From contig JANXEA010000002.1 in NCBI GenBank assembly GCA_025059045.1, positions 10,798 to 74,797 of the forward strand: a stretch of 64,000 nucleotides of DNA, given 5' to 3'. Within the stretch, counting starts at the first letter, position 1. Every line of letters starts with the position of its first letter. The translations under genes and the position numbers were made by a program. This DNA is from Candidatus Bathyarchaeota archaeon. GTDB lineage: Archaea; Thermoproteota; Bathyarchaeia; Bathyarchaeales; DTEX01. Below are positions 2,410-22,960 of this stretch, piece after piece. Under the pieces are notes generated by a model, which ran no database searches, was not told the DNA's origin, and saw only the letters and a program-made list of their open reading frames with translations.

Positions 2410-4701
2410 GTGGCGAATAGATTGGAAGGGGGCTCAGAAAAAATCGAACACCCAAGAAGTGGGCTTACACCTAAGGTTCTAGTGATAGGCATAATACTAT
2501 CGATCTTTGCAGCGTTTTTCAACCAGTCCGAGTATGTAGACTTCTACGAGACCGTTGGGGCGTTGACCCATCTTGATAGCGCCTTCATGCTTTTCCCGGG
2601 AGCGCTACATACGACGGTACTTGGCGGAATCTTTCTAAGCCTAATCACTATTGGTCTTATCCTGCTTATCGACAGGCGGGGGAGATTCTCTAAGCAAGAG
2701 CTAGCAATGATATTCATAATAGGTGTGCTAATCACCTCCATTAACCTTTCAAAAGATGGGTTCATGTCAGGCGAGGATATCCATGAATATATGGCGCCGA
2801 TATGCTGGTATTTCGAAAGCGAGGCGCGCCAAAAGGAATTTTTAGCTCTCTATGCTGGCACTGTCTGGTGTCCAGGACAATTCTCGAATGCAAGCTATGT
2901 GCGAAGCGTACTTAAGGGAAATTTGCTGCAGGGGACGATGATGCCCATAGATTGGGGAGCATGGATGCCTCTTATCGCATACAGAGTGTTATCGCTTACG
3001 GGAATGGCATACCTTGGTGTGGCTATAGCCCTCCTGGTTAGAAGATCATTCATCGAGATCGAGGTGCTTTCCTTCCCATGGGGTGAGATAAATCTCGTCG
3101 CTTTTGAAGAAACCTTAGCTTTCATTAAGGGAGAAGATGCAGCCGGAAGGAAGATTCGAAGACCTCTCATCCTAAGCTTCCTAATCTTCTTCTTCCTCTT
3201 CTTCTCCATGTATGCGCCAAACAACATTCTCTGGCTAGCAGGCGTTAAAGGAGTATCATTCAAAACATGGATGCCATGGTGGACTTATCCGGAAAAGAAC
3301 CCGACTGTTGGAGCGCTCCAATGGTGGACTTCAGACAACATCTTTGAGGTGGACCCCACATTGCTAGGACTATCTTTCCTTCCATGGGTGGCCCTGCTGA
3401 TTCATCTGTGGCCAGTTAACCATGCAGCCTTCTTCATTATGCCTATTGAGGTTCTAATTGGATGCTTTGTAGGTGACATCTTCTTCGAGTGGATATATCC
3501 GATGATACTCTACTCCATAGGACGCCTTCCTACATGGAAAGCCACGGACGCTGTCTATGGGGTAGCTAGAAGCGTTGCTAGCGCTTGGTATGGTGCAGGA
3601 GTATATCTTGGATTAGGTCTATTCATACCATTCGTTATAATTCCACTTTGGAAAAACAGATCGGTCTTCAGTCCAATATTCAAGGCGGCGGCAGGAAGGA
3701 AAGTGAAGAAGGAAATAGATCCCAACGCGCCCACATCATACACTAGTGTATGGATACTTGTCTTGGCCTCCATAATAATGATACTTGCTGGCTTCACGAT
3801 TGTCGGATGGCAGATTACATGGGGTCTACCCATAATACTCTTGTCCTTCGCAGTCGGGATAGGTCAGCTAAGACTAATAGCAGTTGGAGCCGCCTTCATC
3901 TTTGCAACGTACGGATTTGCAAACTTTGACCCCGGACAGTTCCCTGGATCTATGAATGCCTTCCAACGGCACATTACAGCAGCGATATTCGGGCTAGCGG
4001 ATCCTTACAGGGTCATGGATCCGGCAATGTGCACCTTTAGCGCATTCTGGGGTGGAATGACGGGATATGGCGGAACATTCGGCTTCAGAATATGGTGGCT
4101 GATAATGGGAGCCGCCTCGGTGCTCGCAGCCTTCTATATTGCGAATAGAGTGAAACTTGAGGGCAAAGATGTTCTTAAGGCCGCGCTGATATTTATACCG
4201 GTCTCATTGATACTCTTCGATGTCTGGCACATAGCCTCAATATACCTCAACGATGTTCTTTCAGGGCGCTTCTTCAGCATAAGCCTAATCCAGAAAATGG
4301 TGAGAAGGGCTCTCGTAAGGTCTGTTGGCTCTATAGGAATCACGTTGCCAAGCGGAGAAGCAGTCATGGAGATATACACGGTCAGAACAGCATTCGTGGT
4401 CTTAGGAATAGCAATAACCACAACCCTATATATTCTCAGAGATAAATTCGAATGGTTCAGGATCTCGCCTGAAGGCTTCTGGTTCGGTGTCGTTATGGGA
4501 CCGACATGGACTCTATCATTGGCGATGCTGATAATCAAGTATCTGAGTACCAGAGTTGGAGGTGCGACATTCTATGAAAAGATCGCTAAACCGATAGCCA
4601 TAGGCATAATAATAGCCTTCGGTGCTAACATCTTCATACAGCACTGGTTCCAGCTGGCATACAAGTGGCAGACGGCTTTCGGAATAAATTACGCCCCTTG
4701 A
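2410..4701 (+). CDS. Polytopic membrane protein, module A gene 1 (function unknown; one of four paralogs in this window)
   Basis: A 763-aa ORF that is hydrophobic throughout. It shares the motifs GRFSKQELAMIF and IEIEVLSFPWGE with ORFs 4790, 26100 and 28309. A T7 tract follows the stop. Confidence 0.8.
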   Translation: MANRLEGGSEKIEHPRSGLTPKVLVIGIILSIFAAFFNQSEYVDFYETVGALTHLDSAFMLFPGALHTTVLGGIFLSLITIGLILLIDRRGRFSKQELAMIFIIGVLITSINLSKDGFMSGEDIHEYMAPICWYFESEARQKEFLALYAGTVWCPGQFSNASYVRSVLKGNLLQGTMMPIDWGAWMPLIAYRVLSLTGMAYLGVAIALLVRRSFIEIEVLSFPWGEINLVAFEETLAFIKGEDAAGRKIRRPLILSFLIFFFLFFSMYAPNNILWLAGVKGVSFKTWMPWWTYPEKNPTVGALQWWTSDNIFEVDPTLLGLSFLPWVALLIHLWPVNHAAFFIMPIEVLIGCFVGDIFFEWIYPMILYSIGRLPTWKATDAVYGVARSVASAWYGAGVYLGLGLFIPFVIIPLWKNRSVFSPIFKAAAGRKVKKEIDPNAPTSYTSVWILVLASIIMILAGFTIVGWQITWGLPIILLSFAVGIGQLRLIAVGAAFIFATYGFANFDPGQFPGSMNAFQRHITAAIFGLADPYRVMDPAMCTFSAFWGGMTGYGGTFGFRIWWLIMGAASVLAAFYIANRVKLEGKDVLKAALIFIPVSLILFDVWHIASIYLNDVLSGRFFSISLIQKMVRRALVRSVGSIGITLPSGEAVMEIYTVRTAFVVLGIAITTTLYILRDKFEWFRISPEGFWFGVVMGPTWTLSLAMLIIKYLSTRVGGATFYEKIAKPIAIGIIIAFGANIFIQHWFQLAYKWQTAFGINYAP

Positions 4702-4789: not shown

Positions 4790-6733
4790 ATGCCGCATAT
4801 GTACGAAGAGAACGAGTACAGGTCAGGACTGACAAAGTATTCTGTCCTAGCAATTCTGTATGCAATTGTAGTTTTCATACCTTCAGGTATGTACCTAGAC
4901 CTAATGCTGGGTACTGGAGGAGCGGCGAGTAGTCTATTCACACTCATCCTATTTGTCGAGCTTGGAAGGCTTTCAAAAATCGACATCTCAAAGCAGGAAG
5001 CCGCAATAATACTCATGTTTGCTGGAGGGATAGGGTTTAATGCGATGAACCTAGTTTACAGATCATGGTTTGTTAAGAGCGACTTTGCAAAAGCATTCGG
5101 TTTCGAGAAAGAGATACCGTGGTGGTATGCGCCTACATCGGACAGTCTTGCGTATGAATCGCGAAACATCTTTCATAGGGACATGATTGCGCCTTTACTG
5201 ATTTTAATATCGTTGACCTTAATCGGTCTTTTAGTGAGCTGGGGATGGAGTATGCTTGGAAAGGAAATATTCATTGAGAATGAGAACCTTCCCTTCCCAT
5301 TAGCCAAAATGAACGCTGATCTTATCCTCGTAATGACCAGCGAAAGAAGAGAATATCGAGTCAAAATCCTGAGTCTATGCGCCCTGATTGGTCTCTCATA
5401 TGGGATGATGGTTTATGTATGGCCTTTCTTTGTGCAGGTTACCACCGGGATCCCATATGAGAGAGCCTCCCCGCTTCCTTTACCCTGGATCGACCTAACA
5501 CGATATACAGAGATTATGCTGCCAGGGGCAGTAATCGGTATCTCCACAGACATTAGTTCATATCTGCTTGGTTTCATAGTTCCATTCGGGCATATAGTGC
5601 AGATATTTATAGCATCAGTTGCAATATTTATTATTGGAAATTACTTATCTATCAGACTCTCTCCCCCTTTTGGAATAAGGGACTGGTGGTTTCCAGGTTT
5701 CTCCGCTCAGACACTGGCTCAGCGCTCAATCCTCTACATGTGGGCTAGTCTCCAAATTGGTTTCTCACTTGCAGCTGGTCTACTTCCCCTAATTTCACAG
5801 CCAAAAATGCTTAGGAGGACATTCAGTCAACTCTTCACGCTTCGGGCTAGGAGCCAAGACAGGCGAACAGAGCCTATTCCAGGCGGCCTGCTCCTAGGAG
5901 CACTCATTCCAATAACGATAGGCTTCATAGTCCAGTTATGCTGTCTCCTTTATTTTGTTCCAGAATGGGTTGGGCAGAACCCATGGGTTCTAGCAGCGTT
6001 CCCATCACTTCTATTCCTAAACATGCTCACACGTTCTCGTGCCCAGGGTGAAACTGGACTTTCACCCAGTCTAGGTCAAATAGAAAACTTTATATATTAT
6101 GCGACTAATGCTCCCGTGAAGGTTTGGTTCTCGCCGAATCCCGGCTTCTCATATTCTGAGGGGCTCAGTGGAACACCATTCAGCACATGGAGTGGAAATG
6201 TCCATGCGATAAAGATAGCTGAGTTAACCAAGACGAAATCATCCTCTCTTCTGAAGACAACACTTATATTCGCGCCGGTAGCCATAATCCTCTCATTGCT
6301 CTTCACCCAAGCCTTCCTTAGCATAGCTCCCATACCCTCAGGAAGATATCCTGGAACAGTCATATACTGGCCGATATCGGCTACCTATACCTCCATTTGG
6401 GTTGGGGGAAGAGCAGCAGGCCTCTTCAACATTAGCCATGTCGGATTGGCGGTGTTGATAGTTGTGGTTCTTCACTTAACGTCAGTTTTTCTCAGAATTC
6501 CAATATCGGTGATCGCTCTTGCAGTAGGGGTAGGCACATTGCCTCCGAATGCGATAGCCTACCTAATTAGCGGACTGGCTTCTCTTCTAATACGGCGGAT
6601 ACTCGGCGAAAAGTTCTGGCAAGAGTATAGAAACATCATAGCCGCTGGTGTTACTCTCGGCTTAAGCATAGCGGTCTCCATAGCGGTCTCCCTTATGCTT
6701 GTGGACGCTTCAAAGCTCTCTCTTCCATGGTGA
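4790..6733 (+). CDS. Polytopic membrane protein, module A gene 2 (function unknown; paralog family)
   Basis: A 647-aa hydrophobic ORF with motifs SKIDISKQEAAIILMF and FIENENLPFPLAKMNADLI. These match the equivalent positions of ORF 28309 (SNLSRQEVLILYY, YVERLNYPFPYAVVDASI). It ends 6 nt before the next gene. Confidence 0.8.
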   Translation: MPHMYEENEYRSGLTKYSVLAILYAIVVFIPSGMYLDLMLGTGGAASSLFTLILFVELGRLSKIDISKQEAAIILMFAGGIGFNAMNLVYRSWFVKSDFAKAFGFEKEIPWWYAPTSDSLAYESRNIFHRDMIAPLLILISLTLIGLLVSWGWSMLGKEIFIENENLPFPLAKMNADLILVMTSERREYRVKILSLCALIGLSYGMMVYVWPFFVQVTTGIPYERASPLPLPWIDLTRYTEIMLPGAVIGISTDISSYLLGFIVPFGHIVQIFIASVAIFIIGNYLSIRLSPPFGIRDWWFPGFSAQTLAQRSILYMWASLQIGFSLAAGLLPLISQPKMLRRTFSQLFTLRARSQDRRTEPIPGGLLLGALIPITIGFIVQLCCLLYFVPEWVGQNPWVLAAFPSLLFLNMLTRSRAQGETGLSPSLGQIENFIYYATNAPVKVWFSPNPGFSYSEGLSGTPFSTWSGNVHAIKIAELTKTKSSSLLKTTLIFAPVAIILSLLFTQAFLSIAPIPSGRYPGTVIYWPISATYTSIWVGGRAAGLFNISHVGLAVLIVVVLHLTSVFLRIPISVIALAVGVGTLPPNAIAYLISGLASLLIRRILGEKFWQEYRNIIAAGVTLGLSIAVSIAVSLMLVDASKLSLPW

Positions 6734-6739
6734 AATTGG

Positions 6740-9700
6740 ATGAATATAAGTGGAGGAATAATGTCATCTAAAAGGCAAGTATGCAAATGGATCAAGATTT
6801 TATTAATGGCGAGTATAATGCTCATCAGCTTTTTCAACCTAACCCAGATTTACCGCGCAGATCAAATTTTAACAGTCACCTCAACCCCCTCAGAAATGGA
6901 CTATCTTAAACTCGCAAGTATGGTAGACATGGAACTTGTCAAGCATCATCTTTACATGTTGTCAAAAGGGATCTATGAAATATCTGGTGTGCACAGTCGC
7001 GCCACGGGGACTCTGGGAAACGAGCTTGCCGCAAGATACATTTATGAAGAATTTAATAGACTAATGGAGAATGTTTCCATTCAGAGTTTCAGAGTTCCAG
7101 TACCGAAGAGTTACGGCGCCAATATTACGTTTCCTGACGGCAGCGTCATAAAATTATATCCAGTGCTACCTAACCTAGTTTGCCCCTCAACCACGCCGCC
7201 TGAGGGGATAAGTGGCACACTTCAATACGCCCGTGAAGGGTACCTTAAAGACTTCGACGGAATGAGGATTGAAGGGTCAATAGTTATATTGGATTATGAA
7301 TCTGGAAATCGATGGCTTAATGCCATGAAGCTGGGAGCCAAAGCCGTAATTTTCCTGCCGCCCAAAGATCCATTAAACAGTTTCTCCCCATACGGGCATC
7401 ATCACACCCACCCGAAGTATCTTGAGAATTTCCCAGTCTACTTCCCCCGCTTCTATGTGAAGGAGGAAGACTTGAAGAGTCTTTTCATCAATCTAGGCAA
7501 GAATGTTACAATAAAATCAACTGTTAGATGGGAGAATGCTGAATCTTGGAATATAATTGGCTTCATTCGAGGAGAGAACCCGAATGTCATCTTCGGGATC
7601 TCCTCATATTATGACTCATACTCGTTTGCTCCTGATCTTGCGCCAGGAGCCCAGGACGCATGTGGAATTGCAGCACTACTTGCCCTTGCTAAACACTTCA
7701 ACGAACATCGGCCTAAGGCGACGATAATATTCATCGCATTTGGAGGCCACTATCAGACAGTTGCAGGTGCACTTCAATGGGCAGAGAGTAGGGAGTATGC
7801 GGAAATAAGCCAAAAGATCTGGATGATACTTAACCTAGACCTTTCCACTGGGTCAGATGCCCTTCATGTTACAAATGTGGCTCACCTCTGGACCCACGCT
7901 CAGGCTGGCCACACAGAAGCCTATATCGGGATAGGCAGGCATCTTGAGAATATGCGAAAAGCAATATCGGAAGCATATGTTCGGGCAGGCTTAGAACCGC
8001 CTACAGTTTGGACTACATACATTCAAATGAGGACTGGGGGTCCTGGAGACCCGCCTACCAACTATCATGAACCCCATCCGAATAGGGCGTTCCTGACGGA
8101 ATTAGACGCCTTCGACCCTTGGGGAAGCAGAGCGCCTGACTATTGCAACCCAGCCTTCTTCAATATCATTACGGCGAAGGATATTCGTCCATACATCTTC
8201 ACACCATTCGATACATATGACAAGTTGAATTTCGAAAACCTCGAGAAACAACTGCGATATATATATGCGTTAATTCTAACTTTGTATTCGAATGAGGACG
8301 TGCAGTGGCTTATAGAGAACCCGCTAAGATCATGCGCTCCAAGCGGGCGTGTCCAAAGAAATGGAGCATTTGTAGGGCAAACAGCCTTCTGGGACCCCAA
8401 AACGACATGGTATAAACCAGTTCCTAACCTCCTTGTAGTCGCAAGAATGTACTACAGCGTAAATAAGGCTTCAGGTTGGGACGGATGGGGAGGAACAGGC
8501 CCAACATATTACAGGTTCTTCACATACTCAGACGAGAACGGCACCTTTAGGTTCCCATATACTGTCCGAGTATCAACAAAAGCCTGGGTCGGAACAGATG
8601 ATGAAGTATACTTTGAAGCTTATGCCATAGATCCTGAAACAGGCCAGATAGTTGTGGGTCCAGATCTTGGACGGCGAAGCATGATTCCATATCCCTTCGC
8701 TAATACTGTTTGGGAGGGTAAATATGGAGATTGCTTCCTCGGATACCTCACTGTACAAAACGTTACTAGCACAATAATCGTGTCTGACAATTATGCTATT
8801 GGAGAATTTGTAAGTAGAAATCTCTATGATCGTTTTCCTCACCCATCAATCACGGTGAATACGTTCCTCTCGCATGTCCAACCTGAACACTACGCCGTCC
8901 TTTATGACCCTGCAGTCGGTCTCGCGGCGATTCTTCTCTCAACAAACGAGCCTATAGAGGTGATGATCGGGAGGGGAAGAGTGCCTTATGGTCTCATTGT
9001 TAACGCCAGCCGAGAAAATATGCTTGGGACGGGTATAACTTTTGGATATGGACAAACTATCCTAAAGTACCCATATTTAATTTACTGCGAGAATCTGAGA
9101 TGGGTTATCGAAGAAAGATTTAGGTTGGTGGAGCAGTATAAGCCCGTGGATCCCTACATTTATGGTCGCTTCATAAGGGGTGTACAAAGCCTAGAGAAAG
9201 TGTATATCGCATTAAATAATCTATCATACTCGGAAGCCTACGCCTATATGATAGATGCGTGGAGCGACTTATATTGGGCATATGCCAATCAGAGAGGCGA
9301 AATTGAGAACATCGTTTCCATCGCGCCTTATGTCGCCTTCTTTTTGGTGCCCTTCGCCTATTTGACTGAAAGGCTCATACTAAAATCAAGTGGTAGTAAA
9401 CGCATAGCATCGACAATATTAATACTAGTACTCATCTTCTGTATAATTTATACTGTAAACCCGACGTTCAAACTTTCAGGAAACCCGGTTCTAATGGTCA
9501 TAGCTTTTAGTACAGTTATCCTGTCAATCCCGATTCTTTTCATAATACTTAGTAAGGTTGTAGCATTTTTGAATGAGATAAGAATTAAGGTTTTTGGTCG
9601 CCACGAGATCCAGGTAGGCCGAGTAGAACTTGCAATTGCAGCTATTCAGCTGGGAATAGAGAATATGCGAAAGAGGAAGGGGAGGACCGCGCTTGTTCTA

Positions 9701-11356
9701 GTGTCAATAGCGCTCACCATAAGTGCGCTAGTAGCCATGACATGGTTTATTCAAGACGTGCCAGTGATTCCGCAAAGGTTCGTTCCGCCTGAAACCGGCT
9801 ATCAAACGATCCCATACAATGGTATACTTATCCATTACAATGAATGGGGGGGAGAAAGAGAAGGTCACTGGATAGGTGAGCTAGTGGAAAATTATGTGGA
9901 GATCAAGTACTCAAGCTTAGCAATGATAGCGAAGAGGGCGTGGTATTGGCCATGGTACTATGATGACGAAGCCGGAATAGACATCACACATGAAAATAAC
10001 TCAATCAAAGTATATTGCCTCTACGGGTTATCTCCAGAGGATCATCATTTCACAAGTTTCCTACCAAACTTTAACGGAAGATGGTTCCTATCCACAGATA
10101 AATATGCGTGCATACTAATGAGTTCCCACGCCCAATCACTTAAGGCAACAATAAATTCTATAATAGAAATTCAGGGAATGCCCTACAAGGTTATAGGAAT
10201 AATAAGAGATGAAGAGATCTCCTCTGCAGGAGAACTTGACGGGTACAGTGTTCTGCCAGTAGATATTCGAGCATCAAAAACTGTGGACGCGTGGGTAACA
10301 TATTATGAGCCATCTGAGGTTATTTTCATCCCGTACTGGACCGTCATTAACATTTGGGGAGCGCGTACTGGATGTATAAGCCTAAAAATCTCGAACGCAA
10401 GTCTCGCGTGGACCGTCGTGCAAGAGCTCTATGAGAGATTCGGAAGCCTATCCTTCTGGGTTTGTATGGATGGAAAAGTCTACACGCCGACACGCATTTC
10501 GCAAACGCAAGTATTCGGGCTTGAATACATGTTTCCCGCCATCGGAATAAGCATGCTTTCAATATTGAATATGATGCTCGCATCAGTCATGGAACGGAAA
10601 AAAGAAATTTCCGTATATTCAGTGCTTGGTGCCTCGCCATTAAACACCGCGCTTATGTTCCTAACCGAGCATGCAGTCCATGCGGTGATAGGCGGCGTTT
10701 GTGGTTTCATCGGAGGAAACGTGCTCTTATTGCTAATTGCGAGACAGCTAGGAATAAACTACACGTACTCAATAATCCAATTCAATGTCTCTGTGCTAGG
10801 AGCGATGCTGATGGTGATACTTGTGAGCGTATACCCGGCGACGATCATTGCAAAACTCGTCACACCGAGTTTAGAGCGAGCTTGGAAAATGCCAACAAAA
10901 CCAGTCGGCGATAACTGGGATATCCCGATGCCATTCTTCACCTCAGGGGAGGAGGTTGGAGGGGTCCTGGAATTCATGAGAGAATTTTTCTCTGGACATT
11001 ATGATTCGAACGCGCCGGTTTTCTGGGTTGAAAGCATAAAATACGTTGAAGGAGAGGCGGATGGGGTCCCATATATGGGGTATAGCATGCAAGTACACCT
11101 CTTCCCATATGAGACAGGTATCATTCAAGAAGCGAATGTAATCGCAAAGACCGAGGATGCAAGATGGAGGATCTTCCTCCTGACCAAGAGGTTAACGGGC
11201 ATGCGTGATAGGTGGATTCAGCAGAATAGAGGGTTCGCCGACGCTGTTAGAAAACAGTTGTTACTTTGGAGATCACTTAAGCCGGAAGAGAAAATGGAAT
11301 ATATCAAAAAATCAGGGGGTGTGACGTTTAACAAAGGCCATTCTGTATCAGATTAA
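6740..11356 (+). CDS. Giant chimeric envelope protein, module A gene 3: N-terminal anchor, PA/M28-peptidase-like ectodomain, 3 TM, MacB/FtsX-type permease module, conserved C-terminal cytoplasmic domain
   Basis: 1538 aa.
- PA-like: GSIVILDYESGNRWLNAMKLGAKAVIF.
- M28-like: WNIIGFIRGENPNVIFGISSYYDSYSFAPDLAPGAQDACGIAALLALAKHF.
- FtsX N-terminal TM: IENMRKRKGRTALVLVSIALTISALVAM (~nt 9657).
- FtsX core: LNMMLASVMERKKEISVYSVLGASPLNTALMFLTEHAVHAVIGGVCGFIGG (~nt 10560-10730).
- C-terminal domain from VTPSLERAWKMPTKPVGDNW (nt 10859 to the end). Confidence 0.85.
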   Translation: MNISGGIMSSKRQVCKWIKILLMASIMLISFFNLTQIYRADQILTVTSTPSEMDYLKLASMVDMELVKHHLYMLSKGIYEISGVHSRATGTLGNELAARYIYEEFNRLMENVSIQSFRVPVPKSYGANITFPDGSVIKLYPVLPNLVCPSTTPPEGISGTLQYAREGYLKDFDGMRIEGSIVILDYESGNRWLNAMKLGAKAVIFLPPKDPLNSFSPYGHHHTHPKYLENFPVYFPRFYVKEEDLKSLFINLGKNVTIKSTVRWENAESWNIIGFIRGENPNVIFGISSYYDSYSFAPDLAPGAQDACGIAALLALAKHFNEHRPKATIIFIAFGGHYQTVAGALQWAESREYAEISQKIWMILNLDLSTGSDALHVTNVAHLWTHAQAGHTEAYIGIGRHLENMRKAISEAYVRAGLEPPTVWTTYIQMRTGGPGDPPTNYHEPHPNRAFLTELDAFDPWGSRAPDYCNPAFFNIITAKDIRPYIFTPFDTYDKLNFENLEKQLRYIYALILTLYSNEDVQWLIENPLRSCAPSGRVQRNGAFVGQTAFWDPKTTWYKPVPNLLVVARMYYSVNKASGWDGWGGTGPTYYRFFTYSDENGTFRFPYTVRVSTKAWVGTDDEVYFEAYAIDPETGQIVVGPDLGRRSMIPYPFANTVWEGKYGDCFLGYLTVQNVTSTIIVSDNYAIGEFVSRNLYDRFPHPSITVNTFLSHVQPEHYAVLYDPAVGLAAILLSTNEPIEVMIGRGRVPYGLIVNASRENMLGTGITFGYGQTILKYPYLIYCENLRWVIEERFRLVEQYKPVDPYIYGRFIRGVQSLEKVYIALNNLSYSEAYAYMIDAWSDLYWAYANQRGEIENIVSIAPYVAFFLVPFAYLTERLILKSSGSKRIASTILILVLIFCIIYTVNPTFKLSGNPVLMVIAFSTVILSIPILFIILSKVVAFLNEIRIKVFGRHEIQVGRVELAIAAIQLGIENMRKRKGRTALVLVSIALTISALVAMTWFIQDVPVIPQRFVPPETGYQTIPYNGILIHYNEWGGEREGHWIGELVENYVEIKYSSLAMIAKRAWYWPWYYDDEAGIDITHENNSIKVYCLYGLSPEDHHFTSFLPNFNGRWFLSTDKYACILMSSHAQSLKATINSIIEIQGMPYKVIGIIRDEEISSAGELDGYSVLPVDIRASKTVDAWVTYYEPSEVIFIPYWTVINIWGARTGCISLKISNASLAWTVVQELYERFGSLSFWVCMDGKVYTPTRISQTQVFGLEYMFPAIGISMLSILNMMLASVMERKKEISVYSVLGASPLNTALMFLTEHAVHAVIGGVCGFIGGNVLLLLIARQLGINYTYSIIQFNVSVLGAMLMVILVSVYPATIIAKLVTPSLERAWKMPTKPVGDNWDIPMPFFTSGEEVGGVLEFMREFFSGHYDSNAPVFWVESIKYVEGEADGVPYMGYSMQVHLFPYETGIIQEANVIAKTEDARWRIFLLTKRLTGMRDRWIQQNRGFADAVRKQLLLWRSLKPEEKMEYIKKSGGVTFNKGHSVSD

Positions 11357-11377: not shown

Positions 11378-13693
11378 TTATGTCTTCCCGAACCAGATCC
11401 TCCAGCTTTTTCTCTCCTCTCCTTTCTGAAACATAATTGTAGCCTTCAAGATCGGTCCCATAATATTAGTGCTCTCTACTCCGCTAAAGCGAACTGGACT
11501 GAACCCTTCGGGTACATAAATGAAGATATTGTGGCTTGTGTCCTCCGGACTAACTGAAATCCCGTCTAGGACCAGCCTGCCCCCCTCCCACCTTAAGTCT
11601 TCAAGTTCTATCCCTCCCTGCGTAATATGCCTATCCGTCGAGATTACTGTAGGAGACTCGCTGAAATCATGTATGGAAAGAATCTTGCAGTCATTAGGCT
11701 GAATCTCGAAAGCAATCTCGCCATGTTGCACTCCAATGAAGTTTCTGTTCCAAAAGTCGAAGACGAGAACTTTTCTGTCGGCTAAACCTATCTTTCCTAG
11801 GTCAAGACGAATGGTCTTTTTCTGAGTGCAGCTCCAGTTAAATAATCCAACGACATGCCATTCGCCAAATGGCTTCTTTACGATCAGATCATAGATTTGT
11901 GGTAAATCATTCTCAAAGAGGTCGACGGGTCTCGCTCGCCCCGGATAAACTGGAAGAATTTTCTTGTATAACTCCACTCTTTCATTGGTTGCGAACTTCT
12001 GCAAATATCCGCCTGCAAACATGTTTAGGCACATGATTCCAAGTAGCGAAATCCATGATCTCGTCCTCTCAAAGGAGTATGGCTTTGGGCGTGGATAGTT
12101 TGCGGGACAGAAAGGTGTCTCCGAAACATCGAAGAATTCCGGATGATTCCAGAAGCACCTTCCATGGAGATGATACATTGCCTTAAGACCTGAAAGGACA
12201 CGGTCGGAAAGATGAGGTCTCCAGTCACGTGAGGTTCTAAATGCATCTGCAAATCCTATGACTGGGCCAAATGGAACACCGCATGCCTCTATGAAGACAT
12301 TTTTTCCAACAGCTTCACGCACTTGGCGGTATCGATCCCTAAATATCTCCATGGCGGTTCGTTCCCATGATAGATTATGTGTAAAGTCGTAATGGAAATC
12401 CAGGATCACATAGTCAATGTCCCAGTCCGCAATCTTTCCATAAATCTCCTTAACTTTTTCTTTCTCGTTGTGTTCTCCTGCCTTAACGTAAAGGAATGCG
12501 CGTGTACTTAGGCAGAGTTTATATCCTCTTCGGTGAACTAGATCCGCGAACGCTTTGATTCCGCTTGGAAAGTATTTCTCAACTCTATACCCTCTGCTGT
12601 TCTCAACCCAAATTGGGAATGAATTCATCTCATACGGATTGAATAGGTTTGGTGAACCGTGAGAAGAAAAGTCCTGCCAGAAATATTTGAGGCCATACTT
12701 TCCCAGCCCTGTATGGTCTAGATAATCCATCCACTCGATGAAGAATGATTCTCGGCCCAGGAGCGTATAAGCATTGTTTTCTTTATCGAAGGAGTATGGC
12801 ATGAATACTCCGGCAACTGGCGTCGGATGAATATTTATATAATTATATTTCATCAACATTTCAGCGTATTGGTCCATGACGCTGAAGATGTCGTCGCCCC
12901 ACATGAGCAAAGTAGCCGACATTCTGAAGGATCTTTCAGGTCTTATCCTTAGCGGTCTCCTCTCTAATGCTGGTCCATTATATTCTTCCCATGACCCGGA
13001 TCCCCATAATGGATCCAAGTAGCAGCCGCCGCTTATAATTAGGTTTAATCCCTGAATTGGTTTTCCAGAAGCCTCTTTTATGAGAACAGCGACTTCGACA
13101 TTAGCAGTTTCTAGGACTCCTGCTACCAAACCGTTTCCCCCCTCCTTGCTTTTTGCCATATGTAGCGTCCACCAACATCTTGCCCAATTTTTCCCGACAA
13201 CTCTGAGTCTCACATTTGAGAACTCAGGCGGCTCGCCTCCGGTTTTCCAGTATGGCATCCCAAAAAAGATCCTTCCAACATACTCTCTGAGACTTCCTTC
13301 TTCTTCCTCAGTTAATGCGAGTGCGTAAACTTCTCTCACATATAGGTCGTTATCCTTATCATTGAAGATTTCAGGCTGGAAAACAATGCAGCGCCCAATA
13401 GAATATACAACCCATCTAAGTTTCGGGAGATTGGCGCTTTCAGCAGTAACCTCTAACCCCTGGGCCTCACCTACTCCTGTCTTCAACGTCTTCCATGCTA
13501 CGGATCGCTTATATGAACTGTCTGTAATCTTTATTAGGTTTCCATCTCCATCGATGAACCCCATAAAACCATTCTTGAAGAGTGTCTTGTTTCGAATGGT
13601 GCAGGTCAGTTTTCCAGTTTCAACATTGAATTCAAGTTTCACATCACTTCTAGTGGACATGGAGCTCACCACTATCAATAGTTCATTCGACAA
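11378..13693 (-). CDS. Putative cytoplasmic glycoside hydrolase (clan GH-D / GH36-like alpha-galactosidase fold)
   Basis: 771 aa with no signal peptide. Blocks DWDIDYVILDFHYD and FIEACGVPFGPVIGFADAFRTSRDW resemble the K-x-D nucleophile and R-x-S-x-D acid/base regions of GH36/GH27 enzymes. Matched by eye only. Confidence 0.45.
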   Translation of the reverse strand: MSNELLIVVSSMSTRSDVKLEFNVETGKLTCTIRNKTLFKNGFMGFIDGDGNLIKITDSSYKRSVAWKTLKTGVGEAQGLEVTAESANLPKLRWVVYSIGRCIVFQPEIFNDKDNDLYVREVYALALTEEEEGSLREYVGRIFFGMPYWKTGGEPPEFSNVRLRVVGKNWARCWWTLHMAKSKEGGNGLVAGVLETANVEVAVLIKEASGKPIQGLNLIISGGCYLDPLWGSGSWEEYNGPALERRPLRIRPERSFRMSATLLMWGDDIFSVMDQYAEMLMKYNYINIHPTPVAGVFMPYSFDKENNAYTLLGRESFFIEWMDYLDHTGLGKYGLKYFWQDFSSHGSPNLFNPYEMNSFPIWVENSRGYRVEKYFPSGIKAFADLVHRRGYKLCLSTRAFLYVKAGEHNEKEKVKEIYGKIADWDIDYVILDFHYDFTHNLSWERTAMEIFRDRYRQVREAVGKNVFIEACGVPFGPVIGFADAFRTSRDWRPHLSDRVLSGLKAMYHLHGRCFWNHPEFFDVSETPFCPANYPRPKPYSFERTRSWISLLGIMCLNMFAGGYLQKFATNERVELYKKILPVYPGRARPVDLFENDLPQIYDLIVKKPFGEWHVVGLFNWSCTQKKTIRLDLGKIGLADRKVLVFDFWNRNFIGVQHGEIAFEIQPNDCKILSIHDFSESPTVISTDRHITQGGIELEDLRWEGGRLVLDGISVSPEDTSHNIFIYVPEGFSPVRFSGVESTNIMGPILKATIMFQKGEERKSWRIWFGKT

Positions 13694-13798: not shown

Positions 13799-15316
13799 CT
13801 AAGCCAAATCTAATATGAGCCCGCTTATCGAGTGTCTAGGGGCAGTGTATGTGAGTGTGTCTCCACTGATTTCCTCATATGAGCTTCTCGGTTTAACCTT
13901 GTATGGAAACTCGAACCCATTATAATCTCTGACATCTGCTGAGCCTAAAATGTATATTTTCGCTGCTTTTATTGTTTTACCTTCAATTACTTTAATTCTT
14001 ACCTCAAAATCTTCGTCCAAACTCTGATTTACAAGTGTTACCACTATCTTTTTTTTCTCTCTATCTAAAGAGGCTGATGCGTCCACCGCTCTTAACGGCT
14101 TAAGGGCTCCGGATGGTGATTTTTCCACCATCTTTTGCGTAGGGTGGCAAATAATGGGTGAATCTACATTGGCATTTAAGGCATAGTTGCCCATGTGCTC
14201 CTTATATATATCAAATAGATGGTATGTTGGGGTCAAAGTGATTTTATGCCCCTCGGTATGAATTAGGCTTTGGAGAACATTCACCGTCTGAGCTAGGTTC
14301 GCCATATCAATAATACTTGAATACCTGTTAAAAAGATTGAGAACTAATCCCGCAAGAATAGCGTCCCTAAGGGTGTTTTGTTGAAAAAGTCCAACCTTAT
14401 GTGTCGCCTGAGGATACCAGGTTCCCCATTCATCTACCACGATACCAATTCTCTTTTCTCCGACAAGATTGATTGCCCTCGATGTCTGTTGAATAAAGAA
14501 TTCCATATTCTGAACATCGAATAGTAGATTGTAGTACTCCTCATCTGTGAATTCTACATCCCCTCCGAAAGGGTTTCGGCGGCCACTAAAATAATAGTGG
14601 ATGGCGACGCCGTCTACAAGGTTCAATCGATCTCTCAAGCATTCCAAAAAAGTAGTCATCCACTGAATGTTTAGGCGGCCGCATGCAATAAGATTGATGG
14701 ATGGATCCGCCACCTTTAGAAAATTGGCGAATCTCTTATACTCCCAAGCATAGTATGTGGGGTCGAATGATCCGCCACATGCCCAACTCTCATTTCCTAC
14801 TGCCCAATATTTCACATTATAAGGTTCTGGATGACCATTTCTAGCCCTTAACTCAGTATAGAATGTTCGACCTGTAAAGTTGCAGTATTCAACCCAGTTA
14901 AACGCTTCCTGTGGGCTTCCAGTCCCGACATTTAGGCAAATATAGGGTTCAGCGCCCACAGACCTGCAGAACATTATGAACTCATCTGTTCCAAACTCAT
15001 TAGACTCCTCGCCTCCCCACCATAAATTGCGTCTTCTAGGTCTATTCTCACGTGGACCAATCCCATCCTCCCAATGATACATGTCTGCGAAGCATCCGCC
15101 AGGCCACCTGAAGACAGGTGCACGTATAGCCCTTAAGGCGTCAATAACATCTTTCCTTATACCATTAATGTTCGGTATGCTGGAATCCTCGCCAACCCAT
15201 ATGCCCGGGTATATGCATCTCCCGAGATGCTCGATGAAGTGACCATAAAGGTTCGGGTTTATGAGGCCCACGTAATCATCCAATCTAATAGAGACATCAA
15301 CAATTTTTTGATTCAT
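13799..15316 (-). CDS. abfA: GH51 alpha-L-arabinofuranosidase
   Basis: 505 aa. N-terminal NPNLYGHFIEHLGRCIYPGIWVG, acid/base motif WAVGNESWACGG and nucleophile motif IVVDEWGTWY are the canonical GH51 signatures. No signal peptide. Confidence 0.85.
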   Translation of the reverse strand: MNQKIVDVSIRLDDYVGLINPNLYGHFIEHLGRCIYPGIWVGEDSSIPNINGIRKDVIDALRAIRAPVFRWPGGCFADMYHWEDGIGPRENRPRRRNLWWGGEESNEFGTDEFIMFCRSVGAEPYICLNVGTGSPQEAFNWVEYCNFTGRTFYTELRARNGHPEPYNVKYWAVGNESWACGGSFDPTYYAWEYKRFANFLKVADPSINLIACGRLNIQWMTTFLECLRDRLNLVDGVAIHYYFSGRRNPFGGDVEFTDEEYYNLLFDVQNMEFFIQQTSRAINLVGEKRIGIVVDEWGTWYPQATHKVGLFQQNTLRDAILAGLVLNLFNRYSSIIDMANLAQTVNVLQSLIHTEGHKITLTPTYHLFDIYKEHMGNYALNANVDSPIICHPTQKMVEKSPSGALKPLRAVDASASLDREKKKIVVTLVNQSLDEDFEVRIKVIEGKTIKAAKIYILGSADVRDYNGFEFPYKVKPRSSYEEISGDTLTYTAPRHSISGLILDLA

Positions 15317-15436
15317 ATTACCATCTCCAACTAGCCTATACAGTTTTGCTGAAGCAGAGCAGGATAAAAAAATATTTTTAAGAAGAGGACATTAGCGCAC
15401 ATAGGGATTCATCAGATTTGCTGATATTACTTTTTC

Positions 15437-16534
15437 TCAATCCCCTACGTCCGGCTCCCTTTCTGTGGCCTGCACTTCCATAAGCCACTCTTCGTTAAAC
15501 CAGCAGTGTTTGATGCTTCTTCGCAAGTATGTATACACTATATGGATAATGCCATCGTCTGTTTGTAGAAGTTGAGGATAAGAGAATTGTCCAAAAGCAT
15601 CTTCCAAAACTCTCTCATATGGCCATGTTTGCCCCTCATCAATGGAGAAAGCAACGTTAAGGGGAGTGCGCCCTATATGAGTGTCATTGAATGCTAGAAC
15701 AAAATGACCATTTTTAAGCCTTATCAGGGAAATGCCGCTGTTAGGATTTGGGAATTGGGTCTCAACTGCTTCACTCCATGTCCTTCCACGGTCATTCGAT
15801 ATGGATTTCCAGATAAATCCCCCAATATTGAGGAGTTCCTTCTTCTCAGCGATCTTTCCTGTTGAGTCTTGGACTGTTCTCCGAACTGTTGCCTTCAAAA
15901 AGCCGTGCAATGGATGGCTTCGAGTCCTCATATACATTAATAGAGAACCATCAGAGAGTTGAACAATGTTTCCCTGAACGCATCCAGTAACACTTGTTAC
16001 TGGGCCGTAGGTGTCCCAGACTTCTCCCATGTCCTCAGATATCATAACATAACAACAATTAGGCTTCGCTTTACTATCATATATTGGGAGGACTATGTCG
16101 CCGTTATCGAGGACTATAGGGTTATTTCTCACCCATAAGCCTCTCCTAGGACGGAAGATTTTATCTTCACTCCAAGTATTCCCGCCGTCAAAACTTTTTT
16201 TGTACATTATTATGCTTGAGGGTCCGCCTTGATCGTGGCTGACATACCAAAGCCACACAACACCATTTGGATCTACGAATAGCACTGGGTTTTGATCTGA
16301 TTTTCCAGGGACGTCTGCCAAAACCTCAGGATCACTCCAAGAATCACCGGAAAACCTTGAGCAGTAAATAGCAACATCACTAGCTCCCTCCCTCGATCCG
16401 GCGAACCACGCTGCAAGCAAATCTCCGCCTGGCAGTTGAGCGATTGTAGGAGCGTGGCAATCAGGGAACCTTCCCTCCTCAAATATGAGCTCTGAACCAA
16501 ATATTTGGGCCATACTCCCACCTAAAGAAGACAA
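15437..16534 (-). CDS. BNR/Asp-box repeat sialidase-like (GH33-like) beta-propeller protein
   Basis: 365 aa with Asp-box repeats SFDGGNTWS, SNDRGRTWS and SIDEGQTWP. No signal peptide. Confidence 0.65.
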   Translation of the reverse strand: MSSLGGSMAQIFGSELIFEEGRFPDCHAPTIAQLPGGDLLAAWFAGSREGASDVAIYCSRFSGDSWSDPEVLADVPGKSDQNPVLFVDPNGVVWLWYVSHDQGGPSSIIMYKKSFDGGNTWSEDKIFRPRRGLWVRNNPIVLDNGDIVLPIYDSKAKPNCCYVMISEDMGEVWDTYGPVTSVTGCVQGNIVQLSDGSLLMYMRTRSHPLHGFLKATVRRTVQDSTGKIAEKKELLNIGGFIWKSISNDRGRTWSEAVETQFPNPNSGISLIRLKNGHFVLAFNDTHIGRTPLNVAFSIDEGQTWPYERVLEDAFGQFSYPQLLQTDDGIIHIVYTYLRRSIKHCWFNEEWLMEVQATEREPDVGD

Positions 16535-16662: not shown

Positions 16663-19600
16663 ATGCATGGGTCCCGGAAGCTCTATGGATGGAAAGAGGC
16701 CGCTACATACATCCTTGCAGTCATACTTTTGGTGAACGCTCAAATTATTTCATCCGCATGTGAGCAGACCCCACGATCGATAGGCCGCATCTACATAAAA
16801 GTTACAGACGCAAACACAGGGGAACCTATCTCAAACGCAACTTTAATAATACTTGACATTACCACAGGGCTTGAGGAGTCAAAGATAAGGTCAACAGGTC
16901 AAAGCGGAGAGTACGTTTATGAGGAAGCGGTCCCTGAAGGGAAATATTGGATATACGCCTATAAGGGGAACTTGACTAGCGGTTATATGGAATATGCGCC
17001 TGCCGGACCATTTTTAATACATTTCTCAATCTTTGACACCGTGAAGAATCTGACGGTCCGGCTTGTTCCATGCGGAACCATCAGGCTTAAAGGTCCAATA
17101 TGGATGGCTGGCATATCTGAGCTACTAGAGAATTTTGCGGTGACGATTATTGACCCAGCCTGTGGAAAGCCTCCTATGTTAAATGGAGACTATATCAGCC
17201 AGTACAATTCTACAACAAGATTTTATCTTGCGGAGAAAGACTTGCTAAATAAGAGTCTCGTCTTCGTTCCTGCAGACGTTAACCTAGATCTGTTGGTGGA
17301 GGCCACATTCTATAGAAGAGAGGTGGGATTTAGATCCTTCTCGTTCAGGATTGAGAATGTCTCAGTCCGCAAGTCAGAGGAAGCCGCCTATGAACTCTCA
17401 TATTACAGTTTACGTGAGAGCATTAAAGATGTGAATAGTGTTGTCCAATCGGTCATGGAGGAGTTATCTTTTCTCCAGAGTATCGGTTTCTACTTTGTGC
17501 AAGAACGGTCAAATCTAGTGGAGCAGATCAGCACGATAAATGATGCGAGGAGAGAATTGGATAGGCGGGACTATTATGAATGTTGGAAGGCCCTTAGCAA
17601 AGCTTACAGTGAAAGTCTAAGTGTTAGAGAAACCCTGCGTTATTATGTTGGGGTGAGTACTCAGAGTGCGGTTTACCTTCCTACATTCCTAGCCGTTTAT
17701 AGCGTAATACTTGCTTTCTTCCTCTTTGAGGATGACCGGAAAAAAGTTGCTGCCAGCCTCATATTTTATATAGTATTTCTCGTGGCCCTATTCCAAATTT
17801 ATCCTGGTACAAGAACCATAATTAACCCAGAGACTGGAAACATTCGTTTATTTTTGTCAGCCTCTATTCTATCCATAGTCTGTGTAATGGTGCTAGTATT
17901 TTTCCTGCAGCGCCGACCGAGGCTTGGAATTGAAGGTTTAACGACGTTCAGGGATGTACTGGCCACGTTCTTCTCAATGGGGAAACGCCAGATAAGAGTA
18001 AGAAGATCTAGAGGGATCCTCACATTATCATCTGTGATCCTTCTGATCCTAGCATTCACCTCACTAACTTCTATGGGATATATTTATGGGCTAACATACG
18101 AGAAGATACCATACACATCGAACGTTGAGGGGATATTGATAAGGTCGACAGGAAATGAAACATTCATTTATGGACAGAATGTTTATAGGCTTTTTATTCC
18201 ATTCGGATCCAGCCTTGTGTACGCTCTTTCTCAAGATCCCGCAGTCGAGCATGTCGCTCCAAAGATAGAATCATATCCCAGCACAGAACCTATTGGAAGG
18301 CTCTTCTCAAATAGATCATCATTATCGATTTACGGTTTGATCGGCATAGTGCCAAGTGATGAGGCGCAATTTACAAGACTGAACAATGCGATCGTGAATG
18401 GCGAATACCTAAAAGACGGAGACCTTGAAGGATTACTCATAAGCAGCGAAGCGGCTTCAGAATTAGGAGTAAACAGTGGTGATAAGGTTATATTCTCGAT
18501 TGGAGGAATTGTCTCAAACTTTACAGTCCGAGGGATTTTCGGCAGCACATCCTACCAGCAGTTAAGGGATATAGATGGGCAGCCGTTTGGACCTAAGAAG
18601 GCTGCATTTTCCAACGGCACCATCTCATACTCATTATGTGAGCCGAAAGAAGTCATAATATTAAACTTTGAAGCGGCGCTGGAACTTCAGGCAAAGATAA
18701 ACGTTCAGAATAAAAGGGCTCCTGAAGAACCAGGCCCCCTCAATCAGCTCTCCAGAATATCAATAAAGCCTAAGCCAGCTGCGGACATAAAAGGTATGGT
18801 CGAGACCATTGTGAAAAGCTTCGGCAAAGACGCTTATGTCTCTAAAGATGGTGCAGTATACCATTATTACATTGGGTTTGCTTATGAGGCAAAGGGAGCT
18901 CTTGAAATCCTTGTTCCACTGGTGATGGCCCTCATAAACGTCGGCGCCGTCATGCTCAACGCAGTTTACGAGAGAAGCAAGGAGATGAAGATTCTGACGA
19001 CAATGGGATCAAATCCCATGCAGCTCGCTTCATTATTCATTGCGGAGGCAATGACGCTTGGAATGGTTGGTGGTGGGCTCGGATACATTTTCGGCCTAGG
19101 ATTCTACCGTATAATGCTCTTGACTGGAACTGGAATCGAAGTTAGAGAAAAAGTGGAATGGTATTGGAGCGCCATATGTCTATGTCTGGCAGTCTTGGCT
19201 TGTGTTCTCTCTACACTAAGACCAGCTCTACTCGCGATAAAGATGTACACACCATCAATGGTTCGGAAGGCGAAGATCTCTGAAGAGGAGAAGGAGACGA
19301 GAATGGAGGAGATTTTCAAAGTATATCAGGAGAGAAGCATGTCCATGCCAGTAAAAGTGAAGGAAGCGGAGATACTCATATTCACGACTTTCATAAAGTC
19401 AAGAATGGAGGAGATGAGATCAGGAATCTACGAGAGGATTGAAGACGTGGTGGATGAACCTGAAGTACAAACGCCCACTGGTAGGGTCGTACGCAAAGTA
19501 AAGTTCAGATACAATTGCCCACAGGAAAACCTAAAGATAAATAATGAATTAGTATGCAGCAAAGACAAAGGAGAAGACAAGTATAGGGTCCATCTAGTAC

Positions 19601-22949: not shown

Positions 22950-22960
22950 AGAACCCTTTC

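Follow-up and report, generated by a model that had tools for sequence, protein, structure and literature searches.

Protein A, encoded in a 64-kb stretch of Bathyarchaeota DNA (hereafter the window), is a member of a large, unnamed family of giant membrane proteins that represent a new variant of the type VII ABC systems. We read these proteins, with a probability of roughly 0.55, as ~1,500-residue chains that incorporate a type VII module and close with a family-specific cytoplasmic α/β tail, in which the tail would be accessory and the ATPase of the Thermoproteota systems would be supplied in trans. The parts of protein A are as follows.

6740-11356, + strand: protein A, 1,538 residues (open reading frame and translation; Pfam Peptidase_M28, MacB_PCD and FtsX; hydropathy map of the transmembrane (TM) helices)
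6950-7843, + strand: PA and M28-like aminopeptidase-fold domain, approximately residues 71-368 (phmmer alignment to B. subtilis YwaD, 6hc6, E 3e-9)
9302-9547, + strand: three extra TM helices, residues ~855-936 (maxima of the hydropathy profile at 855-873, 889-907 and 918-936; helix 2-22 of the AF2 module model)
9620-9754, + strand: amphipathic elbow helix (residues 961-978) and FtsX TM1 (residues 980-1005) (AF2 DSSP helices 31-48 and 50-75)
9755-10513, + strand: extracytoplasmic MacB-like core domain between TM1 and TM2 (Pfam MacB_PCD; Foldseek to MacB, LolC/E and HrtB)
10514-10861, + strand: TM2, coupling helix, TM3 and TM4 (Pfam FtsX; AF2 helices 329-355, 357-365, 370-407 and 415-444)
10859-11353, + strand: cytoplasmic tail, residues 1374-1538 (AF2 pLDDT 88.4, pTM 0.83)

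From the N- to the C-terminus, protein A comprises a signal anchor, the PA/M28-like ectodomain, the three extra TM helices, which bring the chain back to the cytoplasm, a MacB-type FtsX module and the cytoplasmic tail. Positions 9635-11356 (residues 966-1538) contain, in sequence, the elbow helix, TM1, the core domain, TM2-4 and the tail. The membrane module is a type VII (MacB/LolCE/FtsX-type) ABC transmembrane domain, because it matches Pfam FtsX (PF02687, residues 1267-1372, E 9e-14) and MacB_PCD (E 4e-5, slightly under the gathering score), its AF2 model has a pLDDT of 88, and Foldseek relates this model to MacB (the best matches, 5gko and 5lil, E 4e-15 to 5e-14), LolC/E, HrtB, YtrF, YbbP, BceB and FtsX, the last being the weakest match among type VII proteins (E ~3e-4). 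It shares with MacB and other type VII members the four-TM FtsX fold, the elbow helix before TM1, the core domain between TM1 and TM2 and the coupling helix between TM2 and TM3. The elbow helix/TM1 segment carries a conserved NMRRRxLRT motif. The coupling helix (residues 1287-1295) lies inside ERKKEISVYSVLGASP, a conserved loop of the form ERxREIxxYSxxGLSP that is equally well kept in archaeal and bacterial members; it lacks the canonical glycine of ERxxEIG, which is retained in the small FtsX proteins described below. Compared to MacB of the MacAB-TolC system, the giant protein has no fused nucleotide-binding domain (NBD), and it possesses ~850 extra extracellular residues and the three extra TM helices on its N-terminal side. 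It also has a ~150-residue cytoplasmic domain after TM4 that is found in no solved homologue (aligned length at most ~500 columns), and its partners are OPT-like permeases instead of MacA/TolC.

The ectodomain of protein A aligns with the PA-M28 aminopeptidase YwaD over ~300 residues, including both the PA insert and the M28 core. Unlike in YwaD, however, the histidine of the AHYDS motif is replaced by tyrosine, the catalytic EE by GH, and the last histidine by phenylalanine; the family consensus reads YYDS and SGH at the matching positions. Since the catalytic and zinc-binding residues are replaced in this alignment, the domain is probably a pseudo-peptidase.

The tail is a genuine domain, cytoplasmic and conserved, and is not confined to the source genome. 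It starts with a conserved linker, VTPSLERxWKxPTKPxGDxW, followed by a β-α-β4-α-α domain that closes with an RKQLLLWRSL helix; in the AF2 model, a five-stranded sheet packs against the helices. Searches against Pfam and PDB sequences gave no match, and Foldseek found no significant structural neighbour (best E ~1e-3), in agreement with the preliminary description, which had called the tail novel and proposed these structural analyses. We found the tail in 1,512 clusters at 50% identity (398 of them at E <= 1e-30), nearly always at the C-terminus of proteins of 1,450-1,570 residues with the same architecture. Tail-bearing genes occur at 79 genomic loci across archaea and bacteria, and the arrangement of M28-like domain, PCD, FtsX and tail recurs in orthologues from Kiritimatiellia, Verrucomicrobia, Planctomycetes, Desulfobacterota and Asgard archaea.

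The window encodes two further FtsX/MacB-type proteins with a cytoplasmic tail.

30192-34784, + strand: protein B, 1,530 residues, a paralogue of A with identical architecture and a GTG start; FtsX module and tail from ~32985, tail at 34350-34781
16663-19713, + strand: protein C, 1,016 residues, with a smaller ectodomain, three TM helices, an FtsX module (FtsX at residues 752-861) and a divergent 155-residue tail at 19246-19710

As the preliminary description had stated, open reading frames start at 6740, 16663 and 30192, the FtsX part of each ends in a (V/Y)TPS(L/M) motif (KLVTPSLERAW in A, KIVTPSLERRW in B and KMYTPSMVRKA in C), and a soluble domain follows the last TM helix, with tails of 144-165 residues against the 140-170 given. 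The motif is the family's form of the C-terminal PxEALR segment of canonical FtsX, which corresponds to the minor coupling helix of MacB (PMC5985334). The claim that all three proteins share the tail stands firmly for A and B, whose tails are 39% identical (tail HMM on B, E 1e-55). For C, it is only probable, as its tail is a remote relative that is missed by the A/B-type HMM and shows 22% identity, with an hhalign probability of 95% (E 2e-8) over the first 45-55 residues only. C-like proteins are also encoded near giant genes at loci L006, L016, L040 and L041, and other MAGs likewise have two or three paralogous FtsX-tail proteins.

The genes of the giant tail-bearing proteins belong to a conserved cassette that also encodes two DUF6785/OPT-like membrane proteins, which are paralogues of each other. 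Thermoproteota and Asgard archaea possess this cassette, as do Desulfobacterota and the Planctomycetes-Verrucomicrobia group (PVC). In the window, the genes of these partners precede A and B.

2410-4701, + strand: membrane protein resembling DUF6785, the probable second partner of A (phmmer relates it weakly to neighbours of the DUF6785 family at other loci; OPT-like/DUF6785 BLAST cluster)
4790-6733, + strand: OPT-like polytopic membrane protein, conserved partner of A (Pfam OPT, E 1e-8)
26100-28163, + strand: DUF6785/DUF6784 membrane protein, partner of B (Pfam PF20581, E 5e-20, and PF20580)
28309-30210, + strand: OPT-like membrane protein, partner of B (phmmer against the product of 4790-6733, E 1e-34; many orthologues adjoin giant genes); its last 19 nt overlap the beginning of B, at the GTG start

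The two partner types, matching either Pfam OPT or DUF6785/DUF6784, are homologous to each other (hhalign 99.9%, E 2e-32, for the 26100-28163 product against the OPT-like partner). In 64 of 78 cases, an OPT-like homologue is encoded no more than 5 kb from the giant gene (42/51 archaeal, 20/25 bacterial and 2/2 Asgard). Clustering of all neighbouring open reading frames yielded only three widely conserved families, namely DUF6785/OPT-like proteins, extra FtsX proteins and ABC ATPases, and the only elements common to the cassettes of all lineages are the giant protein and the DUF6785/OPT-like proteins. Most bacterial and Asgard cassettes also encode a minimal, tail-less four-TM FtsX, which stops exactly at the matching PxEAxRxE motif. 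To our knowledge, no OPT-family protein is known to share a cassette with both FtsX proteins and ABC ATPases, and a literature search found no description of one.

The cassettes differ in their ATPases. Proteins A, B and C contain neither a Walker A nor an ABC signature motif, and phmmer with LolD-like queries found no LolD/FtsE-type ATPase in the window, whose sole ABC ATPase belongs to an unrelated pair. The preliminary description had seen no Walker motifs by eye and had named the same single ABC ATPase with its ABC-2 permease.

51155-52102, - strand: DrrA-type ABC ATPase, coupled to its own ABC-2 permease at 50211-51152, - strand (Pfam; unrelated to A-C)

Among the 51 Thermoproteota or other archaeal homologues (42 with an informative flank; ~720 kb of flanks), none has a LolD-type ATPase or a minimal tail-less FtsX (~200-500 residues) within 5 kb. 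By contrast, the tail-bearing gene has an ATPase gene within 5 kb in 19 of 25 bacterial and both Asgard cases. These cassettes encode one or two LolD-type ATPases, which score best against LolD, MacB, FtsE and DevA models, and in PVC and Desulfobacterota one ATPase gene lies directly upstream of the giant gene and overlaps it; many of the ATPase genes overlap the start of the giant gene. Whether or not an ATPase gene lies nearby, the tail motifs are just as well conserved in archaeal as in bacterial members. The preliminary description had tied the tail to the missing ATPase, as a new energising or regulatory partner or an NBD-recruiting adaptor. This link is not supported: bacterial and Asgard cassettes hold both the tail and a dedicated ATPase, and the tail therefore cannot be a replacement energiser. 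A co-varying FtsE-like ATPase, which it had named as the contrary outcome, thus exists in bacteria and Asgard archaea, whereas the Thermoproteota flanks show none.

The ATPase of the Thermoproteota systems is either encoded elsewhere or lost. We lean slightly towards a candidate trans-encoded ATPase common to A, B and C over true loss; a shared ATPase is plausible because the window alone encodes three paralogous FtsX-tail proteins, and other MAGs two or three. The total lack of linkage is nevertheless unexpected for a dedicated partner and counts against this reading. In the mechanism we propose, an ATPase dimer would dock on the coupling helix, and ATP binding would be mechanically transmitted via TM1 and TM2 to the core domain on the extracellular side and to the fused pseudo-peptidase ectodomain, which might capture or present a substrate from outside the cell for the two OPT-like permeases; both the substrate and its hand-off are speculation. 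In MacB, the helix after TM4 (the minor coupling helix) touches the NBD (PMC5985334). Because the tail begins directly after this position, chain connectivity suggests that it lies beside the ATPase-docking face, where it may have a regulatory or NBD-associated adaptor role, most likely by serving as an accessory platform for stabilising or regulating the complex, and not as an energy source.

Alternatively, the ATPase might have been lost from Thermoproteota together with the small FtsX, leaving the FtsX-plus-tail protein as a nucleotide-independent static anchor or organiser for the ectodomain and the OPT-like permeases; the tail, perhaps dimeric, would then replace the ATPase dimer as a cytoplasmic clamp, and the permeases would be driven by the proton-motive force. 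The contrast in ATPase linkage between archaeal and bacterial or Asgard loci fits this proposal, as do the joint absence of the minimal FtsX, by which the whole sub-module is gone, the lack of any other conserved candidate energiser among the neighbours, and the restriction of the universal cassette parts to the giant protein and its partners. We nonetheless consider it doubtful: identical tail motifs occur alongside ATPases, so that the tail did not evolve as a replacement, the coupling loop and elbow helix are still among the most conserved archaeal segments, and a gene missing from a 10-kb flank may still be encoded elsewhere in the genome. Moreover, as far as we know, every type VII transmembrane domain characterised to date depends on an NBD.

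It is rather unlikely that the tail docks the cytoplasmic loops of the DUF6785/OPT-like partners and couples the FtsX module to them, with or without an ATPase. Such docking would suit the universal co-occurrence of these proteins, the independence of tail conservation from ATPase linkage, and the tail-less small FtsX, which shows that a tail is dispensable for a canonical ATPase partner; however, C-like FtsX proteins with a tail-like domain often lack an adjoining OPT-like gene, as at 16663-19713, and DUF6784 is membrane-embedded and thus offers no obvious soluble partner domain. Improbable is a small-molecule or lipid sensor of the helix-grip fold that gates the transporter from the cytoplasmic side: many weak Foldseek matches are of the Bet v1/START type (SRPBCC; Ara h 8, TTHA0849, ZhuI, Hyp-1 and Lam4 StART) and a strand and helix, four strands and a long C-terminal helix resemble a shortened version, but no match reaches E <= 1e-3, TM-scores are 0.2-0.43, PsbP- and DcrB-type folds score as well, and the five strands fall below the seven usual for Bet v1/START folds.

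Returning to the type VII module with an accessory tail, the bacterial and Asgard cassettes resemble LolCDE in pairing two different FtsX-type proteins, giant and small, with separate ATPases that score best as LolD. Unlike in LolCDE, the small FtsX lacks a periplasmic domain, the giant protein carries the pseudo-peptidase ectodomain and the tail, the cassette shows no sign of lipoprotein handling, and Thermoproteota cassettes contain neither the small FtsX nor the ATPase. FtsEX (with EnvC, PcsB or RipC) and YbbAP-TesA likewise couple a hydrolase-fold domain outside the cytoplasm to a type VII transmembrane domain and act by mechanotransmission and not by transmembrane transport (PMC5985334; PMC12646458; PMC10694151). 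In the giant protein, by contrast, the hydrolase-fold domain is fused to the permease with its catalytic residues replaced, and a tail is present that these systems lack. A peptidoglycan role for protein A is unlikely, because the window seems archaeal by its gene content.

Three FtsX-type permease proteins, termed A, B and C, are encoded in the window, and the two giants among them, A and B (~1,500 residues), are each preceded by two polytopic membrane partners of ~650-760 residues.

2410-4701 and 4790-6733: membrane partners of protein A
6740-11356, forward strand: protein A, 1,538 residues
16663-19713, forward strand: protein C, 1,016 residues
26100-28163 and 28309-30210: membrane partners of protein B
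30192-34784, forward strand: protein B, 1,530 residues
51155-52102, reverse strand: DrrA-type ABC ATPase, coupled to an ABC-2 permease

The three proteins share one hydropathy profile: a signal anchor, an ectodomain, three transmembrane (TM) helices, FtsX TM1, an extracytoplasmic domain, TM2-4 and a C-terminal tail. Pfam places a Peptidase_M28-like domain near the N-terminus of A and B, followed by a MacB-like core domain and the FtsX domain, which spans residues 1267-1372 of A, 1273-1386 of B and 752-861 of C; the stretch 9635-11356 encodes residues 966-1538 of A, namely the FtsX module and the sequence beyond it. ORFs, Pfam matches and hydropathy agree with the preliminary description that a soluble tail follows TM4 in each protein, and the (V/Y)TPS(L/M) motif that it placed at the end of the last TM helix is seen in all three sequences (KLVTPSLERAW in A, KIVTPSLERRW in B and KMYTPSMVRKA in C). 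Beyond this segment lie 165, 144 and 155 residues in A, B and C, respectively, which are cytoplasmic according to the standard FtsX topology. B has a GTG start and shares its first 19 nt with the end of the OPT-like gene before it (30192-30210), and 6 nt separate A from the end of its OPT-like neighbor, which suggests co-translation of permease and giant. Directly downstream of A, a 771-residue ORF on the reverse strand (11378-13693) has neither a Pfam match nor a homolog among the 80 fetched loci.

A, B and C all carry an FtsX-type four-helix transmembrane domain of the type VII ABC kind. PF02687 (FtsX) scores above the gathering threshold in each (E-values of 9e-14, 5e-11 and 1e-10 for A, B and C), and A and B also have the extracytoplasmic domain of MacB_PCD, Porter/Sabre type between TM1 and TM2 that characterizes type VII transmembrane domains. 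PF12704 (MacB_PCD) gave 24.4 bits for A and 26.9 bits for B, both slightly under the cut-off of 27 bits, and ~250 residues of α/β structure are modeled by AlphaFold2 (AF2) at this position in A. The AF2 model of A residues 931-1538, computed from an alignment of 71 sequences (pLDDT 88), most closely matches MacB in a Foldseek search (E-value 4e-15), with further matches to Spr0694-0695, LolC/E, HrtB, YtrF, YbbP, BceB and FtsX. The alignments to MacB and LolC cover ~450-500 columns, no match is aligned over more than ~500, and separate weak PsbP/DcrB matches fall on the tail; together these model-based comparisons suggest that solved type VII structures lack a comparable C-terminal domain. A short helix, the candidate coupling helix, is predicted between TM2 and TM3 at residues 1287-1295 of A. 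The loop between these helices is conserved in the giants as ERxREIxxYSxxGLSP, but lacks the glycine of the ERxxEIG motif, which is kept in the minimal, tail-less FtsX proteins (small FtsX) of other genomes.

The tails of A and B are 39% identical, whereas that of C shares only 22% identity and aligns with the A/B type over the first 45-55 residues alone (hhalign probability 95%, E-value 2e-8); the tail proposed to be common to all three is therefore shared by A and B and probably, as a remote relative, by C. It found no match in Pfam at E ≤ 10, in NCBIfam, or in the PDB by phmmer or by a seven-sequence profile, and Foldseek against the PDB returned weak and mixed matches only, yet AF2 folds it confidently from a seven-sequence alignment (pLDDT 88.4, pTM 0.83), in keeping with its earlier designation as a novel domain. 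The model starts with an extended conserved linker (tail residues 1-18); one strand and one helix come next, then four strands, and two helices close the domain, the first of 24 residues and the second shorter. Two motifs are conserved, VTPSLERxWKxPTKPxGDxW and, on the long helix, RKQLLLWRSL. The significant superposition and the seven-stranded sheet around a long C-terminal helix that define an SRPBCC/Bet v1-START helix-grip fold were not found. Neither the tails nor the remainder of A, B and C contain a Walker A or ABC signature motif, in line with an earlier inspection by eye, and the tail has no Pfam ABC_tran match; with P-loop motifs absent and a different fold, it is not a cryptic nucleotide-binding domain (NBD).

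Alignment with small FtsX proteins showed that (V/Y)TPS(L/M) corresponds to the canonical C-terminal PxEALR segment of FtsX domains and is thus not a novel feature. The counterpart of this segment in MacB, the minor coupling helix, touches the NBD (PMC5985334). The tail would therefore be attached where the transmembrane domain faces the ATPase, a position that, judged from chain connectivity, fits an accessory, regulatory or stabilizing role.

When 1.84 billion cluster representatives were searched exhaustively with a profile of the tail, 1,512 tail-bearing proteins scored at E ≤ 1e-3, of which 398 reached E ≤ 1e-30; the match almost always lies at the extreme C-terminus of a protein of 1,450-1,570 residues. 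A word-indexed homolog search with the tail alone returned five fragments, so that the family is visible only to the exhaustive profile search. NCBI labels its members merely as "ABC transporter permease", and the tail merits definition as a domain family, which would cover ~1,500 clusters that now bear this label or none. Scanning one genome per species gave 79 tail-bearing loci, distributed over Thermoproteota (Bathyarchaeia, Brockarchaeota, Thermofilaceae and Korarchaeota-like genomes), Asgard archaea (Hodarchaeota and Promethearchaeota) and bacteria (Kiritimatiellia, Lentisphaerae, Verrucomicrobia, Planctomycetes and Desulfobacterota). The bacterial and Asgard members retain the same architecture of M28-like, MacB-like core, FtsX and tail domains. 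A Thermofilaceae MAG has the coding sequence of the tail broken into two short ORFs of 81 and 88 residues (L034:9932-10471), upstream of which no intact FtsX gene was detected; this is probably a decayed copy.

ORFs were called in all loci and labeled by phmmer and Pfam; when all those lying up to 7 kb from a giant gene were clustered, three neighbor families proved to be widely conserved.

Conserved neighbor families of the giant genes
DUF6785/OPT-like membrane proteins (~650 residues): 120 members in 66 loci, all lineages
Additional FtsX proteins: 26 members in 24 loci, mixed lineages
ABC ATPases: 28 members in 19 loci (17 bacterial, 2 Asgard, 0 Thermoproteota)

The OPT-like partner is homologous to the DUF6785/DUF6784 protein (hhalign 99.9%, E-value 2e-32, ~590 columns), and each cassette thus holds two paralogous permease-like proteins, a pairing kept across archaea and bacteria. 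Planctomycetes-Verrucomicrobia group (PVC) cassettes follow the order DUF6785 protein, small FtsX (496 residues), ATPase, giant, OPT-like protein and ATPase; those of Desulfobacterota follow the order small FtsX (232 residues), ATPase, giant, DUF6785 and OPT-like protein; and the Asgard ones form a divergent operon with small FtsX and, in L065, two ATPases (L046 is cut within the first). The cassette ATPases score best against LolD, MacB, FtsE and DevA models, and the upstream ATPase gene often overlaps the start of the giant (in L048, the giant begins at 5372, ahead of the ATPase end at 5379). The small FtsX proteins of the bacterial and Asgard cassettes (200-500 residues; L048:3116-4606, L071:4150-4848, L065:3181-3789 and L046:543-1193) have the canonical ERxxEIGxxKxLGA loop and end exactly at the PxEAxRxE motif, without a tail. 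The 232-residue form has almost no extracytoplasmic loop, and a minimal four-TM FtsX devoid of a periplasmic domain is unusual in itself; this form is highly abundant in Desulfobacterales, whose sequences dominate the matches to small FtsX, and is present in the cultured Desulfonema ishimotonii. Minor neighbor families, each in few loci, are URO-D-like (uroporphyrinogen decarboxylase family), B12-radical-SAM, aminotransferase and metallo-beta-lactamase proteins; the URO-D-like gene recurs near the giant in eight loci, seven of them archaeal (for example, L017:4620-5786). Among the papers searched, none mentions DUF6785 and none describes the combination of FtsX, M28 and OPT.

Searching the window bore out that no FtsE/LolD/MacB-type ATPase adjoins A, B or C, and that its sole ABC ATPase, of the DrrA type, is paired with its own ABC-2 permease. 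In other lineages, a LolD-like ATPase is encoded no more than 5 kb from the tail-bearing gene in 19 of 25 bacterial and both Asgard cases, as opposed to none of 51 from Thermoproteota and other archaea, 42 of which are flanked by 3 kb or more of sequence on one side or both. The Thermoproteota cassettes, including both in the window, lack the ATPase and the small FtsX alike. The dedicated, co-varying FtsE-like ATPase that was to speak against the original proposal is accordingly found in bacteria and Asgard archaea, and is missing from the Thermoproteota neighborhoods.

For Thermoproteota, we favor an ATPase encoded elsewhere in the genome, perhaps shared by several paralogous systems, with a probability of roughly 55-60%. 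The predicted coupling loop and the elbow helix stay among the best-conserved segments of the archaeal giants, and no type VII transmembrane domain is known to us that works in the absence of an NBD, both of which argue for this reading over loss. Several paralogous systems do occur per genome, as with A, B and the related C in the window, and C-like proteins likewise lie near giant genes in four other loci (L006, L016, L040 and L041); against it, it is striking that linkage is lacking in every one of the 51 cases. The other reading still standing is that the ATPase and small FtsX sub-module were lost and that the FtsX-tail protein works without nucleotide. A specific version, in which the tail of an NBD-free module would act as a cytoplasmic clamp and two proton-driven OPT-like permeases would power the conformational work, appears unlikely to us; if it is true, no earlier case is known to us of an ABC mechanotransmission machine giving rise to an ATPase-independent descendant. 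No conserved candidate for a hidden alternative energizer emerged among the clustered neighbors of the Thermoproteota cassettes. The earlier suggestion that the tail is itself a new energizing partner is contradicted by the operon-encoded type VII ATPases beside it in bacteria and Asgard archaea: since the tail coexists with dedicated ATPases and keeps the same motifs with or without them nearby, it did not arise as a substitute.

The ectodomain aligns with PA-M28 aminopeptidases such as Bacillus subtilis YwaD (6hc6; E-value 3e-9). Compared with YwaD, A has the first zinc-binding His replaced by Tyr, the catalytic Glu-Glu by Gly-His and the last His by Phe (window 6950-7843); B retains the first His and has Gly-His as in A, and the family consensus, with YYDS and SGH, points the same way. 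The M28 set of two-zinc ligands (His, Asp, Glu, Asp and His) and catalytic Glu is thus incomplete, the fold being kept around a non-canonical active site, and from these replacements the ectodomain of A and B is probably a pseudo-peptidase that serves as a binding domain rather than an enzyme. FtsEX-EnvC and YbbAP-TesA are type VII systems described as controlling extracytoplasmic hydrolase-fold partners (PMC5985334; PMC12646458; PMC10694151). By analogy with these, the FtsX module would probably move or gate the pseudo-peptidase ectodomain. Since two OPT-like permeases are the constant companions of the giants, an extracellular substrate may be captured or presented for uptake through them.

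Altogether, the system is of the type VII ABC kind, its cytoplasmic domain and its cassette both undescribed so far. To our knowledge, the characterized type VII systems (MacB, LolCDE, FtsEX, BceAB, HrtBA and YbbAP) are bacterial without exception; the present family carries the fold into a widespread, uncharacterized cassette of Thermoproteota, Asgard archaea, PVC bacteria and Desulfobacterota, which adds a pair of OPT-like permeases, a probable pseudo-peptidase ectodomain fused to the FtsX module and a cytoplasmic domain without known relatives. ATPases present in the cassette of one lineage and absent from that of another amount to a natural experiment, which can reveal the role of the tail and whether a MacB-type module works without a dedicated ATPase; the ATPase-less Thermoproteota branch is where a surprise could lie.

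Elsewhere in the window, an ECF-transporter S-component gene (39596-40156), beside which no ECF ATPase or T component was recognized, is a second transporter component without a nearby ATPase; it is overlapped by a 271-residue ORF (40149-40964) lacking a Pfam match. Polysaccharide-related genes lie between the cassettes (13799-16534, reverse strand, and 19860-24684, forward strand), and the genes between and beside the two cassettes include an α-L-arabinofuranosidase, a BNR/sialidase-like protein and a pectate-lyase/β-propeller protein. They fit a polymer-scavenging lifestyle, without identifying the substrate of the cassette. The last of these proteins, of 1,029 residues with pectate-lyase, PKD and PQQ β-propeller domains, and a β-propeller protein of 539 residues that is likewise encoded between the cassettes each end in a coiled-coil/DivIC-like segment.
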